Position numbers: made by a program. Source: a virus. Taken from it: a DNA stretch of 64,000 nt. The DNA is taken from positions 1 to 64,000 of the IMG/VR virus record IMGVR_UViG_3300030060_006882; one strand, written 5' to 3'. Within the stretch, counting starts at the first letter, position 1. Each line of letters begins with the position of its first letter. Of this stretch, positions 36,001-42,000 are shown piece by piece.

Positions 36001-39000
36001 TTTGTATGAATAGTATGTCATGTTCTGGATAAGGAATCTCTGCTGCCATTCTAGCATAAAGATATGCGGTTGCATTCTTGTCTTTCATTCTATACAATCT
36101 TGATAAAAACCACAGAGGTTCTGCTCTACTAGGTCTGTGATTGAAACAATCAAGAAATGCTTGTGCTGTCTCTTCTGTTGACCGTTCCAACATTCCTTTT
36201 AATATAGCAACTCTCAAAAGAGAATAATAAACTTCCTCTGGCCATCCACCAAGTTCAACTCTAGCCTCATACGCATCCAGTGCTTTTTGCCATTGTTGAG
36301 AATCAAAATAACTTTGTGCAAGATAGAACCGATATCTTTCATTTTTGGGTTCATCTACAAGTGCAGCCTCTAGAGTTTCTGCATCTCTTTTGTACTTATC
36401 AATTGGATTTACTCCAACATTTCTAGCACCTTCAGTTCTAGCAATAACTCTATAATCACCCGTTATTTTACCAAAATTCATTTCTTCTCTTGGTTTACTA
36501 GTACAGTCTGCATATTCATGAAGAACACCGATATAATTCCAATCGTGTTCTAATTTAAATATTTGATTTCTCCACCAACCAAATTCTGCTCTACCCATAC
36601 TAATTGCATATGCATCGGCATCCATCACATCAGGATATTTAAAGTTACCTTGCATATAATCATCTGCGTCAATTACCCACGCATAGTCAGCATCTGATTT
36701 TTGTGCATTACGCAAAGATTCTGTCCTTGAACCAGTTTTACCATTATGATCACCAAAACCCTTCCAATCAGACTGGTGTACTTCACCGGGAATATTTAAC
36801 TCTTCCATAGTCTTCTTAATTAGATCTTGTGTACCATCAGTGGATCCAGTATCTGTAATATCATAGCGATCAATATACTTAGCCATTGATTTTAGACATT
36901 GATCTATAATATGCGTTTCATCTTTGACAATCATGCATAATGTAACGGTTGGTCGGCTCATAATAACTCCATAATCCAAGTTTGTAAATCTACTTTAGGA
37001 ATCCATCCCAATTTATTCGAAATTTTATCAATTATTGCTTGGGTAGCAAAAACTTCTCCTGATCTCTCTTTTATATATGAGCTATTATCTGAAATCATTT
37101 TAGAAATTTCATTTATAGAATAACTTACACCAGATCCAACATTAAATAATTCACCTGAAATTTTATTTTTTTCTGCTGATGATATATTAGCCGAAACAAC
37201 ATCAGAAACATGAATAAAATCTCTTCTTTGTTTTCCAGTTCCGGTTATAGTTAAAGGCAACCCCTGTTTTTTTTGTTTGAGGAACAAACCCAGTACTGGA
37301 GCATAATTACCAGTACTATGTTGACGGTTTCCATATACATTAAAGTATCGTAAAATAGTTGTATGTAGTCCATATAATTTAGAGTACATTCTACACAAAT
37401 CTTCACCTGCATATTTGGAACAAGCATATGGATTTAGTGTAGGAAGAACTTCAGACTCTTCACTTTGAACCATAAATTTACATTTGTAAATAGCAGAGGT
37501 AGAAGAAAATATAAAGTTTTTAACTTGATTATTTTTCGCTGCTTCTAAAACATTAATCATTGCTGATACATTAGTTTCATAACAATGAACTGGATTTTCT
37601 ATAGCATCCTGTATGCTAACATCAGCAGCCATATGAAATACATAATCAACACCCACCATCAATTCATTTACAAGTTTAGAATCAGAAATATCACCAATAT
37701 AGTTATTGGCTAATTTATTCCAATGTCCATTTTCATTAATATCTAAACAAACAGTATCATATCCATCTCTCATCAACCTATCTACTAAGTTACTACCAAT
37801 AAAGCCAGCAGCACCAGTCACAAGAACCTTTTTCATTACAAACTCCTAAAGTAAGTTTCCGAACTTACATTTTTATCATCAATAAACAAATCATATGCAG
37901 GCTTATTCAAGTGAAGTTCGTGGTATTTTACTCCCCACTCTTTAAACTGATTCTCTGTAACTTCTCGCCAGTCAATTCCAGTTATTACACCTCTTGATGT
38001 CCAATAAACAATTACATTTCCTTCATCATATAGCTCATTTATTCTGTCAATCCGTTTTTTAATAGGGATTGAATTTATATAATTTCTATCATCAGGAGAC
38101 TCACAAATAGTTTCATCTATATCAACATAAATTATCATAATAGACTAATACCAATCTTTCTATCGAATAAATTCAATTTATTAATTTCAGTATCCATATA
38201 TTTGGAGTCATTTAACACATGTGTAGTAGAAACCTCTTCAATTACACATCCGTTTTTACTTCTAAAAGAATGTTCTGCTTTTCTAGAAATAATTTTTGGG
38301 ACACCAAGTTCAAGAGGAACATCTCTACCATTCAAATTTAAGATACAGTCTCCATACAACAATTCAAACGCCTCCTCCTTTTGAATGTGGTGGTGAATTG
38401 GATGTGACTGCTCAGGAAAAACAATAATTATTTTTTTACAATATTCCCTATTCACCTTATCAATTATCAAAGCACCCGTTTCAAAAAATCTTTCTAATCC
38501 ATAGTGACAAGATATTTCTACTTTATCTTTTTCTGATATTTTTATCTTAGATTCATCTAATATTTTTAATGCTTTCCTTTTAATATCTGAGATAATGACT
38601 TCTTTATCAACAGATACAAAGTCTTTTGTATAAACACCAGAATCGAGTTCGATATCATTTGTCGAAACACTTCCGATTACTTCATATAGGTGAGAAGCAT
38701 CCATTTGGTTTTCTTGAGTTGGCATTGCAAAATACAAATCGTCTCGGTGTATAAGCTCCCCTGCTTTAATTTTTCTGTTGACATACATGCCTCTTTTAAG
38801 ACTTCTAAGTGAATCCTTTTCTTCAGTTGAAACTCCGCTTATAGAAGACTGCAATCTCTGTACTTTAACAACTAAATCTTCAGCTTGTTCTGGATTGACA
38901 CTATATTTATTCAGTGATATTTCATCCGTTGGAACACCTACATGCTTTTCTATAATACTACATCCCATAGAAACTGCAAATGGCACCAAGGAATCTTCAT

Positions 39001-42000
39001 CTGGAGACTCATGTGTAGAAAAACCTATTTCTATATCATGAAATTCTTCTTGTAACATCCTAATTCTGTTTAGATTAGATTTTTCTACTGGTGTTGGATA
39101 TTCTCCAACACAATGCATAAATGCAAAGTCTCTATCATTTTTCTTAAACAGATTGTATACTTTCTTCAGTAAATCGAACTCTGCTCCAGCAGTCGATATA
39201 ATAATTTTTTTGTTTATCTTACAAACTTCTTCTAATAAAGGCCAGTCATCTATAGAGCAACTAGCAATCTTAATAACATCAATGTCTAGACTATTCATCC
39301 AACACAGAGATTCATTATCAAATGGTGTAGCCATAGTTTTCATACCAGAGTTTCTAATATGATCTACGATTTCACTAAACTGCTCGTATGATAATTTTGT
39401 TTCGTTGAACCTCTTAACGTATTTTAAATCTGATTTTTGATAGTCTTTGTGTATAAAACTTTCCAGTTGTCTAAACTGTAGTTTTATAGCAGACGATAAT
39501 TTATACTTTTTAGATAATTTAGCAAAATCATCTACTATATTCTTTGCATGAGAAACACATCCCATGTGATTATTAGCCATTTCAAAAACGTAAAACATTT
39601 AACTGTTCCTTTTAGTTAAATTTTCCATATCAAAGGGAGTGTCTATATCTAGAGCATGTTTTATTGGAAAATATAAAGTATCTTCATTATATAAATTCAA
39701 GTTTAAGTTTGGTAGCTCACTACACTCAAACATAGAGACAAACCAAGAAATTCTAAAACACTTTGGATAATCTTGTCTCCTGTATAAGTCATGACAAACA
39801 ATCTGTTTACCCATGTTGTCCTCTAGTTCAAATGCACATAAATATGGGTGATCTTTTACAATTTCTTCTCTACATAGTAAACTTTTTGATTTTTTATTCT
39901 TATACCAATCATAAATTGCCAGAATATCAGACCAAGATCTTTCTGGATATGTTAGGTACATCATTACAATAGTTCCTGTTAATCCATAATCATCAATAAC
40001 CTCTTTTAAACATTCTGTAGTAGAAGCAGTATTAGTTGCACTATTTTCACTTCTTCTATGAACTCTAGTTCCACAATCCAATCCCATAGATTCTATTAAA
40101 TCATCATTAGTAGTTATAATTGTATTGGATATTAAATATTCTTTGGGTATAACCGAAATAGTATTTTCAAGTAGTAATCTATTTTTAAAAGGGATTTCTT
40201 GTGAATCTCTTCTGGCTGGTATAATAAAAGTACAATTCATTTTAATTCTATTCTACAAATTTAACATTATAAAGTTTTCGTAATATATCTTCTTCTATAT
40301 CAATTTGATGGGTACTAAATGGCTTATTTACTTTTTCATAATAATGATCATGATTATCTTGTCTGAAAAAGTCAAACCCATAGCAACTAACCTCATCAAA
40401 TTCTTTGGAAGCAATAACAATAGCACAAAAGCCGGATGTCAATGAATCAATTTTATCTTTGTATTTCAAAACATAATCAGGAACTATAGCCATGTCATTA
40501 TTGATTATTTTTTTTATATTTTTTAGTCCCTCTGAATTAGCATCTTTCAAATATAAAAATTCATTATCTTCAATCAATTGACTTATTTTTATACTTTCCC
40601 ATTTTTCAAATTCGGATGTGTAGTGATCCAACATAGCATTAAAATCAACCATAGAAGAAAGAACATGAGTATTAAGAACTCTCTTGTCTGTTCTAGAACC
40701 CACATGTTTTTCGTATCCACGAACTACAGCTCGGTTACATCTAATTACACAATCATACGAATCGATTTCTTCGCCATATAAGTTATCAAGAATTGAAGGT
40801 CCACTTCCAACTACAGCACATTTACTTTTTTCCATGATACAATCCAATCAAATATTAAGAGCCATTAGTTCTTGTAAAATGTTCTGGTATTGGTTCTGTA
40901 TAGTTCATCTTGTGATCTCTGCTAGAAAAACAGTAAAGAAGTGAATCATTTGGAATTGTCTCAATAAATTCTCCAGCACTATTTTTAAATCCAAGAGAGA
41001 ATGAATCTGCATATTCTAAATATGTGTCACCTACATTAATAGATTCCCATTTCCTAGACTTTCTTGTTTTTGTTCCCATACCATGAATATTAAACCCGTT
41101 GGATTTATAGAATTCATAATATAAAGCAGGACTAATCGAATAATACCCTCTACCGTAAAACCCAGACAAATTTGAAGTATGAAATACACAACCATTATCT
41201 TTTAGCATATTTGTTATATTTTCAAGAACCATTGCAATGTTAAAACAACAATATAATGTCCCGGAATCTATCACCCAGTCATACTTATTGTGAAATTCTG
41301 AAGGAATTGGTTCATTTAGATTTAACTTATTGGTAGGATTTCCATTTATATCAAATGTTTCTACTTCAGAAAATCCCAAGACATCAAAATTTCCATTTAT
41401 AGCACAATCTCCTAGAATTGCACATACATTTCCATCGGAAAATTGTTTTCTATAAGACTGCAAAAGACTAAAATCTTCTGGTTCAATTGCCACTATAATA
41501 TTCCTCTAGTTTAACTTTCAAGAAATCAGTATCTGCTGAGACTATTTTTACATTTTCTGGAATCTCTTCATCGTTTTTTTCAACAGAAATTGGATTATAA
41601 TCTACGGTATTATTATAATCATGATAAGAACAAAATGCATCAGATAAATCTTGCAATTTCACATTAAAACATTCATCTACTGAAATTATACCAGAAGAAT
41701 CTATATTGTCAAGAATAGTTTTAGACATTTCAGTTACCATAATAAAATACCTAGAAGGATTATTTACATTAACCCCAATTGGTTCTGAGTTTATCCTTTT
41801 AGTTTCCCATATGTCCAGTACACTCCCCGTAGAAAAGAAAAAATTAACTCCTTGTATCAAAGAATATCCGTTTTCTAACATAGCCTTTTCCATTAGTAGT
41901 TTACTAGATCCATAAACGCTAGTTGGACTTATGGCTTTATCTGTGCTAACAGCAACTATATTTGTTATTTCTAAATCATTTGCTATTTCTATTAAATTCA

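Follow-up and report, generated by a model that had tools for sequence, protein, structure and literature searches.

We analysed 64,000 nucleotides (hereafter the window) that form the first 64 kb of the IMG/VR virus record IMGVR_UViG_3300030060_006882, a linear sequence of 74,702 bases (74.7 kb) that is about 41% complete. The window belongs to a marine, T4-like myovirus and carries on its minus strand a short gene cassette centred on a protein in which a NeuB-type synthase, a SAF domain and a cupin are fused. On balance, we favour the view that this cassette makes a cytidine monophosphate (CMP)-activated 3-deoxy-2-ulosonic, i.e. sialic-acid-like, sugar without the uridine diphosphate N-acetylglucosamine (UDP-GlcNAc) 2-epimerase NeuC and passes it to an enzyme of glycosyltransferase (GT) family GT29, with ketodeoxynonulosonic acid (KDN) as the leading candidate for the product. 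The argument is built on the identity of the domains and their catalytic residues, on the loss of an arginine that anchors the N-acetyl group of the substrate in a known NeuB, on a recurrent partnership with a small phosphatase and a cytidylyltransferase, and on the lack of NeuC in the record.

Sialic-acid-like sugars govern the recognition of cells by viruses, immune systems and predators, and four textbook routes lead to them, namely those to N-acetylneuraminic acid (Neu5Ac), legionaminic acid (Leg), pseudaminic acid (Pse) and KDN. The fusion is widespread and not special to this phage: its family has thousands of public members, among them dozens from marine phages. Databases name the protein only generically. 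We found no description of a NeuB-cupin fusion, or of phage nonulosonic acid pathways of this kind, in the literature searched, and the word “cupin” is absent from a paper on the phylogeny of nonulosonic acid synthases (PMC8208679). The presence in one phage of a donor-sugar pathway, a eukaryote-type sialyltransferase and enzymes of fucosyltransferase families suggests that phages remodel the surface glycans of the host or of the virion, a process that we believe has gone unstudied in the ocean.

Gene content of the cassette

A sequence-only reading of the window had placed genes for a GT29 enzyme, a NeuA, a NeuB with a C-terminal cupin and a haloacid dehalogenase (HAD) phosphatase side by side at 37836-40847. 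All four lie there as described, on the minus strand, abutting or overlapping one another in an operon-like packing. The stop codon of the NeuB-cupin gene overlaps the start of the HAD gene by 4 bases, and the HAD stop in turn overlaps the start of a gene for a short-chain dehydrogenase/reductase (SDR), which the sequence-only reading had not counted in. The features are as follows, PEP standing for phosphoenolpyruvate.

40248..40847, minus strand: GT29-family sialyltransferase-like catalytic domain of eukaryote type (Pfam PF00777)
39599..40240, minus strand: NeuA-like CMP-ulosonic acid synthetase (cytidylyltransferase), 213 amino acids (Pfam, NCBIfam, profile against PDB)
38135..39598, minus strand: NeuB-SAF-cupin fusion, 487 amino acids (Pfam, AlphaFold, Foldseek)
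38834..39598, minus strand: NeuB TIM barrel (fusion residues 1-255, approximately), a PEP-condensing aldolase (PF03102)
38609..38806, minus strand: antifreeze-like SAF domain, fusion residues 265-330 approximately (PF08666, E 8e-4; strands visible in the model)
38138..38611, minus strand: D-lyxose/D-mannose-isomerase-type cupin of the fusion, about residues 330-487 (profile A3, Foldseek)
37836..38138, minus strand: minimal capless HAD-superfamily phosphatase, 100 amino acids (TIGR01689, PDB 9iqw)
36958..37836, minus strand: GalE-like extended SDR (epimerase or oxidoreductase), 292 amino acids (PF01370, 199 bits)

The same reading had reported no UDP-GlcNAc 2-epimerase, and this holds: the Epimerase_2 (NeuC) family gave zero matches at E<=1 in the whole 74,702-base record, whereas the same search, run as a control, produced matches in 11 of 14 genomes. 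Because the record is only about 41% complete, the absence applies to the record and is not proven for the phage.

The NeuB and SAF domains of the fusion

Three Pfam families match the fusion, namely NeuB (E 1.5e-43), SAF (E 8e-4) and Lyx_isomer (E 2.5e-3), the match to PF03102 reaching 149.4 bits for a gathering cut-off of 22.1. An AlphaFold model built on 53 sequences has a mean predicted local distance difference test (pLDDT) score of 93.3; this model, together with Foldseek matches of its last third to D-lyxose isomerases, bears out the presence of a cupin at the C-terminus of NeuB. Searched with Foldseek, the TIM-barrel and SAF fold of residues 1-330 matches 3g8r, 1xuu and 8h2c (E 2e-36 to 1e-24), with 3g8r at E 2e-36 and Neisseria meningitidis NeuB (NmNeuB) and Campylobacter jejuni PseI at E 1e-24 to 3e-26. 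Among solved structures, the NeuB-SAF part has by far its nearest relative in 3g8r (profile E 5e-142, 38% identity), entered as a “putative spore coat polysaccharide biosynthesis protein E” of Chromobacterium violaceum. This protein shares with the fusion the motif FEMANNH and a hydrophobic residue at the position of NmNeuB Arg314; unlike the fusion, its chain of 350 residues has no cupin, and it is a structural-genomics entry whose title gives no function.

The HMMER alignment to NmNeuB is shifted near K53/Q55, leaving the invariant K39-x-Q41 of the family four residues off, and only well-aligned blocks were therefore used to map residues. Within these blocks, NmNeuB E25, K129, S213, H215, E234 and H236 correspond to E6, K110, S194, H196, E217 and H219 of the fusion, all invariant in 53/53 sequences. 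On the substrate side three residues differ, NmNeuB E134 aligning to S115, N184 to Gly and Arg314 to M292. According to PMC6795526, Arg314 is the lone SAF-domain residue in the NmNeuB active site and positions the N-acetyl group of N-acetylmannosamine (ManNAc). Its column holds M292 in the window protein and a hydrophobic residue in 53/53 sequences (M28, F10, I8, L4, W3), with 0 Arg or Lys, whereas Bacillus subtilis SpsE retains Arg at this position in the same alignment. The NeuB equivalog model TIGR03569 (NeuB_NnaB), nominally the best NCBIfam match, scores 152.7 bits against a cut-off of 399.65, and the PseI model TIGR03586 scores 144 bits against 340. Given the hydrophobic Arg314 column and these scores far under the cut-offs, a 2-acetamido sugar is an unlikely substrate for this NeuB.

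The cupin domain of the fusion

The C-terminal domain, in which the motif HPIHHH..KEEAF occupies residues 399-411, had been linked in the sequence-only reading to the D-lyxose/D-mannose isomerases, and the metal and catalytic residues of that family are indeed kept. A profile of 24 cupin domains (A3) matches 2y0o (E 9.6e-19) and 7nzo (E 6.2e-18) in the PDB. Foldseek places residues 330-487 on 2y0o with a template modelling (TM) score of 0.71 and a root-mean-square deviation of 1.8 Å over 164 columns, and on 7nzp/7nzq with TM scores of 0.66-0.67. Against PF07385 the window protein scores 17.5 bits, under the gathering cut-off of 20.8, and a relative (locus L008) scores 22.2 bits; precomputed matches to PF07385 or PF07883 are found on many close relatives.

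According to PMC8378251, the Thermofilum D-lyxose isomerase TsLI binds sugar and Mn via K62, H75, H77, K86, E88, H143, E156 and D163. Seven of these eight residues, K62 to E156, have counterparts in the fusion, namely K389, H402, H404, K407, E409, H443 and E455. H404, K407, E409, H443 and E455 are invariant (53/53), K389 is conserved in 51/53, and position 402 is His in 40 sequences and Gln in 13. Like B. subtilis YdaE (2y0o) and TsLI (7nzo-7nzq), the phage cupin has the fold including the N-terminal helices (TM 0.66-0.71) and retains the metal site along with the Lys and Glu of catalysis; unlike them, it is fused behind a NeuB-SAF module and has a six-residue deletion round the metal loop. 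It also ends in an Arg-Lys pair that is found in every sequence reaching the end of the alignment (39/53 and 38/53, the rest being gaps). We conclude that it is a true D-lyxose/D-mannose-isomerase domain, predicted from sequence and model to be a working aldose-ketose isomerase.

An assignment of the cupin to the type I/II phosphomannose isomerases was considered and rejected: the solved enzymes of that kind match far more weakly (7zvm, E 3e-8, vs 1e-18), and Foldseek agrees.

The partner enzymes

The GT29 domain scores 112 bits against PF00777 (cut-off 23, E 4e-32) over profile positions 55-269 of 272. Its gene reads as 199 amino acids from a TTG codon and as 195 amino acids in database cluster P0121, which starts at an ATG at 40835; the latter is likely the true start. 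Read by eye, the translation shows what we take to be the sialyl motifs L, S, III and VS. CMP-sialic acids with nine carbons serve as donors for GT29 enzymes.

Taken singly, the NeuA-like sequence is weakly matched: CTP_transf_3 reaches E 3.5e-4 and 20.9 bits, under a cut-off of 22.6, the PseF model E 3e-6, and the best PDB match is a CMP-Kdn synthetase, itself weak (E 5e-8). A profile of the protein and four relatives (A5) matches the Vibrio cholerae CMP-sialic acid synthetase (CMAS) 6ifd (E 5.4e-16) and, over its full length, the N. meningitidis enzyme (NmCMAS) 1eyr (E 3.7e-15), as well as the CMP-Kdn synthetase 9t4z (E 2.6e-7). In a hidden Markov model alignment of this very divergent protein, the aromatic residues of the C5 pocket in NmCMAS (Y179, F192) are matched by S169 and N182. 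Following the reasoning of PMC12934254, S169 and N182 in place of the aromatics fit a C5 group other than N-acetyl. The same source reports that a hydrophilic residue at site 196 of PpNeuA selects KDN over Neu5Ac, Arg occupying it in Kdn-only organisms. We equated PpNeuA R196 with NmCMAS F192 by its spacing from a conserved Tyr, since the direct alignment to 9t4z ends before R196.

The HAD protein matches TIGR01689, “capsule biosynthesis phosphatase”, at E 2e-4 (below its cut-off), the BT0820 family at E 6e-3, and the PDB entry 9iqw, a “capsule biosynthesis protein”, at E 9e-12. Within its 100 amino acids we read by eye DIDET, TS, K and DD, which we take to be the four HAD motifs. The SDR has GalE and LegB as its top NCBIfam matches, all far under their cut-offs; it reads SSTSAIY...YACSK, and, read by eye, lacks the D-E pair of dehydratases. 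It may belong to the cassette.

Distribution, clades and gene partners of the fusion

A word-indexed protein search returned 4,408 relatives of the fusion at E<=0.001 among 8,000 scored candidates; the best 120 of these are 479-506 amino acids long and 54-100% identical, and cover the whole query. With one genome per species, at least 457 of at least 600 pattern matches encode a fusion relative. The best 80 of these (at least 457) loci, on which the bacterial-locus counts below are based, span many phyla: cultured Mycobacterium, Nitrosomonas, Rhodocyclus and Butyrivibrio are represented, as are candidate-phyla bacteria and some archaea. In IMG/VR the fusion occurs at 49 distinct loci, and the ESM Atlas has several clusters of this architecture, some of them mostly viral. 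No deposited phage genome in a collection of 50,697 GenBank phage records, which may lack records of the present genome itself, shows the NeuB-cupin fusion: in a tblastn search of that collection 3 records matched, all with <30% identity and in the NeuB part only. A 484-kb uncultured phage, LR756508.1, is the sole record there with a GT29-like match (in 4 places, at about 322.9-326.1 kb); a NeuB-like match lies some 2 kb away.

The phosphatase is a recurrent partner. A homologue of the 100-residue HAD protein is found by tblastn in 37/80 bacterial loci, and lies within 600 bp of the fusion in 36/80. At L008, HAD and the cytidylyltransferase are joined in a 340-residue protein with CTP_transf_3 at its N-terminus (E 9e-23) and HAD at its C-terminus; an SDR gene precedes it, and genes for a TylF methyltransferase and a Capsule_synth-family protein follow. 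Among the 49 viral loci, examined with 8-kb flanks, 28 have HAD, 21 relatives of the SDR, 6 a NeuA of the window type and 6 a GT29 (L087, L090, L091, L096, L097 and L100). We also clustered the 1,626 open reading frames (ORFs) lying no more than 6 kb from the fusion across 129 loci, using crude ORF calling and leaving clusters 20, 24, 28, 34, 37, 40-42 and 45-59 out of the annotation. A cytidylyltransferase/HAD cluster is found at 77 loci, SDRs at 69, C-methyltransferases at 46, a thiamine pyrophosphate (TPP) enzyme at 41 and DegT aminotransferases at 37, and no NeuC is present among the annotated recurrent clusters of the 129 loci.

A FastTree phylogeny of 121 sequences, rooted at the midpoint and read for topology without support values, separates three clades; 8 of the 129 loci were dropped for want of an ORF spanning the match or with a match ending before residue 460. 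The marine clade comprises 28 sequences, including the window and 24 viral contigs, and always has NeuA nearby. In bacterial clade A, a NeuA-HAD gene lies directly upstream of the fusion; ORFs of 330-370 amino acids hold the NeuA-HAD position in most loci of this clade, and SDRs of 30-36% identity lie upstream of NeuA-HAD in L006, L008, L012, L049, L064 and L066. Clade B has no NeuA, and its fusion genes stand among genes for a TPP enzyme, a nucleoside triphosphate (NTP) transferase, SDR, DegT, NUDIX, radical-SAM and C-methyltransferase proteins.

In many clade B loci (L009, L017, L025-L029, L034, L045, L051, L057, L061, L063, L069, L078 and others) a 600-residue TPP enzyme lies directly beside the fusion, accompanied by radical-SAM/B12 genes. 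There, as pure conjecture, a TPP carboligase might supply the cupin with a ketose to isomerize ahead of PEP addition, which would amount to a chain extension towards a higher sugar. Many marine viral contigs (L082-L085, L088, L089, L093, L101, L102 and L129) have a second NeuB paralogue (274-310 amino acids, about 25% identical), which lies upstream of the fusion at a distance of about 1.5-2.5 kb, or about 3.3 kb in L101; some of these contigs also have an NTP-transferase/kinase fusion, and the window has one NeuB only. L002, labelled a Legionellales metagenome-assembled genome (MAG), has the same gene order around the fusion as the viral L082, its nearest tree neighbour, and may be a phage contig binned into a bacterial MAG.

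Proposed pathway

In the pathway that we infer, both in the order of its steps and in its substrate, product and acceptor, the cupin of the fusion would convert a ketose, probably a ketose phosphate such as fructose-6-phosphate, to a manno- or lyxo-configured aldose, and the NeuB barrel on the same polypeptide would condense this aldose with PEP. The HAD protein would then strip the terminal phosphate, the NeuA-like enzyme would attach CMP, and GT29 would put the sugar on a glycan that the other transferases of the surrounding gene island build, either at the host surface or on virions. The coupled SDR, the neighbouring methyltransferases and a dioxygenase may modify the sugar. Since lyxose/mannose isomerases make manno/lyxo aldoses, the simplest chain would run from fructose-6-phosphate via mannose-6-phosphate to KDN-9-phosphate, and KDN is hence the simplest product and the leading candidate. 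The polar residue at the NmCMAS F192 site of the NeuA lends this chain weak additional support. The fusion of HAD to NeuA at L008 and its translational coupling to the synthase here tie the phosphatase to the ulosonic acid pathway and argue for a phosphorylated intermediate.

The logic of these steps is the same as that of the pathway to 3-deoxy-D-manno-octulosonate (Kdo), in which KdsD, KdsA, KdsC and KdsB perform, in this order, the isomerization of a ketose phosphate to an aldose phosphate, the condensation with PEP, the HAD-catalysed dephosphorylation and the activation with CMP. Unlike in that pathway, however, three of the four enzymes come from other families or subfamilies: the isomerase is a cupin and not a SIS domain, and forms one polypeptide with the synthase; the synthase is of NeuB type, KdsA/DAHPS enzymes being distant Foldseek matches only; and the HAD subfamily differs. 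With NmNeuB (1xuu), the phage synthase shares the TIM barrel and SAF domain, the metal ligands and most catalytic residues. Compared with the NeuC/NeuB/NeuA pathway, there is no NeuC, Arg314 is replaced by Met, E134 by Ser and N184 by Gly, identity to NmNeuB is 22-23%, and a cupin and a phosphatase are added.

Known KDN routes, as given in PMC6200933, use mannose-6-phosphate, a phosphatase and a CMP-Kdn synthetase. The phage cassette is like the pathway of Bacteroides thetaiotaomicron and Prymnesium parvum presented there in combining a NeuB-family synthase, a HAD phosphatase and a CMP-transferase without NeuC. It departs from it by its fused isomerase, the word “cupin” occurring 0 times in PMC6200933, and by a HAD protein of the TIGR01689/9iqw subfamily instead of the KdsC/BT1713 type. 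The NeuA, for its part, appears to have no Arg gatekeeper, unlike the CMP-Kdn synthetases of the Kdn-only organisms covered by PMC12934254.

Several observations weigh against this proposal, or against KDN in particular. E134, one of the three catalytic acids of NmNeuB, aligns to S115, with an invariant D118 three residues on, and TsLI D163 falls in a variable column without a direct counterpart, an invariant D464 following two residues later. No KdsC-type model is among the NCBIfam matches of the HAD protein at E<=0.01, which are only TIGR01689 and the BT0820 family. The gatekeeper site of NeuA is N182, polar but not Arg, in a weak mapping made via NmCMAS. We found no characterized member of this NeuB clade. 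A built-in mannose-6-phosphate isomerase would be redundant in most of the bacteria that carry the fusion, the Capsule_synth neighbour in clade A hints at a Kdo-like donor there, and the coupled SDR, like the modifying enzymes close by, points to additional chemistry. Clade B, without NeuA and in another enzyme setting, indicates that the family is not uniformly a KDN synthase. Finally, the characterized D-lyxose isomerases use free sugars, not phosphates (PMC8378251).

The sequence-only reading had drawn a self-contained KDN pathway from the same genes. It is supported in part, by the isomerase family of the cupin, by the conserved HAD partner (36/80 loci; fused to NeuA at L008), which fits a phosphorylated route like that to KDN, by the lack of NeuC in the record and by the missing Arg314; the type of the HAD, the Asn in NeuA and the free-sugar habit of known D-lyxose isomerases speak against it. 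The term self-contained was an overstatement, the SDR being translationally coupled to the cassette and the neighbouring genes being shuffled among relatives.

Alternative explanations

The same enzymatic logic might serve another sugar, derived from a rarer aldose phosphate or from a remodelled product, such as an 8- or 10-carbon or an undescribed ulosonic acid. Examples would be lyxose-5-phosphate made from xylulose-5-phosphate, heptose-7-phosphate made from sedoheptulose-7-phosphate, or remodelling by the SDR, the methyltransferases or the dioxygenase. We consider this unlikely, yet it is the alternative to be taken most seriously. A fused isomerase would pay only if the aldose is otherwise scarce, and mannose-6-phosphate is presumably present in most cells; the cassette has an SDR coupled to it, and relatives of this SDR are found beside it in bacteria; the NeuB and PseI models lie at an equal distance from the NeuB clade; and in clade A the module is accompanied by a TylF O-methyltransferase and a transferase of the Capsule_synth family, which we take to be the KpsC/KpsS Kdo-transferase family. 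Against it stand GT29, which is known in general only with nine-carbon sialic acid donors, the CMP-Kdn synthetase as the best, if weak, single-sequence PDB match of NeuA (E 5e-8), and the island Pfam scans, in which no kinase or precursor gene for a rare ketose phosphate was seen. The isomerase family itself is named for D-lyxose, and its Thermofilum member is pentose-specific according to PMC8378251, which favours a non-KDN product. A bolder version of this idea, tentative and in our view rather doubtful, would see in the fusion, together with its HAD and NeuA partners, a separate NeuC-independent, isomerase-primed ulosonic acid route that extends across many phyla of bacteria, some archaea and a marine clade of largely viral members, with an undescribed sugar acid and not KDN as its product; in the present phage, the eukaryote-type GT29 would add this acid to a fucosylated, sialyl-Lewis-like glycan of the host or virion.

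The other explanations fare worse. That the cupin acts on free sugars (fructose to mannose) or is structural or regulatory, with the HAD protein serving another step of the island, would agree with the free-sugar use of all characterized cupin relatives (PMC8378251) and with the position of HAD kilobases from the NeuB-cupin gene in the viral loci L082, L083, L084 and L097. It is nonetheless improbable, for three deep clades all keep the cupin's catalytic residues unchanged, a pattern that speaks against a non-catalytic role, and HAD is bound to the pathway by its fusion to NeuA at L008, by the similar long ORFs in most clade A loci and by its coupling in the window. A Pse/Leg-type diamino sugar, which the sequence-only reading had offered as its own alternative, would be fed by a PseB-like SDR (41483-42301) and a DegT aminotransferase (45966-46916), NeuB acting as PseI or LegI. 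The island does contain this Polysacc_synt_2 SDR and DegT, in L097 these genes lie between the NeuB-cupin and HAD genes, and models for PseB, PseC, PseI and PseF are among the NCBIfam matches. Their scores, however, remain far under the cut-offs (PseB 91/408, PseC 99/424, PseI 144/340, PseF 27/206), and the island Pfam scans show no N-acetyltransferase of PseH/LegH type, no PseG and no NeuC/LegG-type hydrolase. DegT adjoins an FdtA (144 bits), a pairing used for 3-amino-3,6-dideoxyhexoses, the 2-acetamido-anchoring Arg of NmNeuB and SpsE is missing in 53/53 sequences, and a ketose/aldose isomerase has no obvious job on 2-acetamido sugars, all of which makes this sugar type decidedly improbable.

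Ordinary Neu5Ac is highly improbable; here NeuC would be encoded by the host or by the 59% of the phage genome that the record lacks, with the cupin as an accessory. The record covers only some 41% of the genome, NeuB_NnaB nominally leads the NCBIfam matches, and GT29 and NeuA resemble sialic acid enzymes. However, Arg314 is lost and N184 aligns to Gly, the NeuB_NnaB score of 153 bits falls short of its cut-off of 400, NeuC is lacking among the annotated neighbours at 129 loci, the hydrophobic N-acetyl pocket of NmCMAS is not retained in NeuA, and the bacterial NeuC/NeuB route needs no HAD phosphatase according to PMC6200933.

The phage and its glycan island

The cassette is part of a longer glycan island, which lies between gp43 with tail-fibre-like genes on one side and regA/gp44/gp45 on the other:

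35729..53534, minus strand: glycan island, about 17.8 kb (Pfam, PHROGs, guanine-cytosine (GC) content)

Besides the cassette, the island encodes a GT2-TPR protein, methyltransferases, the PseB-like SDR, PIG-L, GT4, PhyH, FdtA, DegT, GT2, GT8, FkbM, GT10, GT11, GT25 and GT32. Its GC content is 0.30-0.32 at 38-52 kb, vs 0.35-0.42 at 20-36 kb and 0.35-0.36 at 52-56 kb. The T4-like core genes comprise gp43 DNA polymerase at 28185-30731 (PHROG 262), UvsX, gp41 helicase, gp61 primase and ribonucleotide reductase, together with regA, the clamp loader and gp45 (53563-56306) and gp46/gp47-like proteins (60234-63737). Mis-assembly of host DNA into a viral contig was considered as an origin of the island and rejected because T4-like core genes flank it on both sides. 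In the collection of 50,697 GenBank phage records, the gp43 polymerase has its best matches in Synechococcus phages, at only about 51% identity, and a megablast search with 37000-42400 gave zero matches. The island is syntenic with L097, L100 and L096, with a shuffled gene order; in L097, genes for PhyH, GT4, PIG-L, a PseB-like SDR and a methyltransferase stand between the fusion and HAD.

Two fucosyltransferase families, GT10 and GT11, join GT29 in the island together with GT8, GT25, GT32, GT2 and GT4, part of them at 48281-53534. This set of families is better known from eukaryotic or Helicobacter-type sialyl/fucosyl glycans, and occurs here in a marine T4-like phage. The FdtA 3,4-ketoisomerase (Pfam, 144 bits) lies directly downstream of the 316-residue DegT aminotransferase, the pair spanning 45545-46916 (DegT at 45966-46916), and also adjoins GT29 in the relatives L096 and L097. 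We take the pairing to be that of FdtA and FdtB, used in the synthesis of dTDP-3-amino-3,6-dideoxyhexoses; no RmlA or RmlB was seen in the window.

Tail-fibre-like genes at 31808-35697, one of them with collagen-like repeats, directly border the island, an arrangement compatible with glycosylation of virion fibres. Elsewhere in the window, a single ORF of 3,658 amino acids at 639-11615 on the plus strand, with no Pfam match at E<=0.001, may encode a giant virion fibre or surface protein, and in a 675-residue protein at 16262-18289 on the minus strand an HNH endonuclease domain is confined to the C-terminus (residues 560-633).

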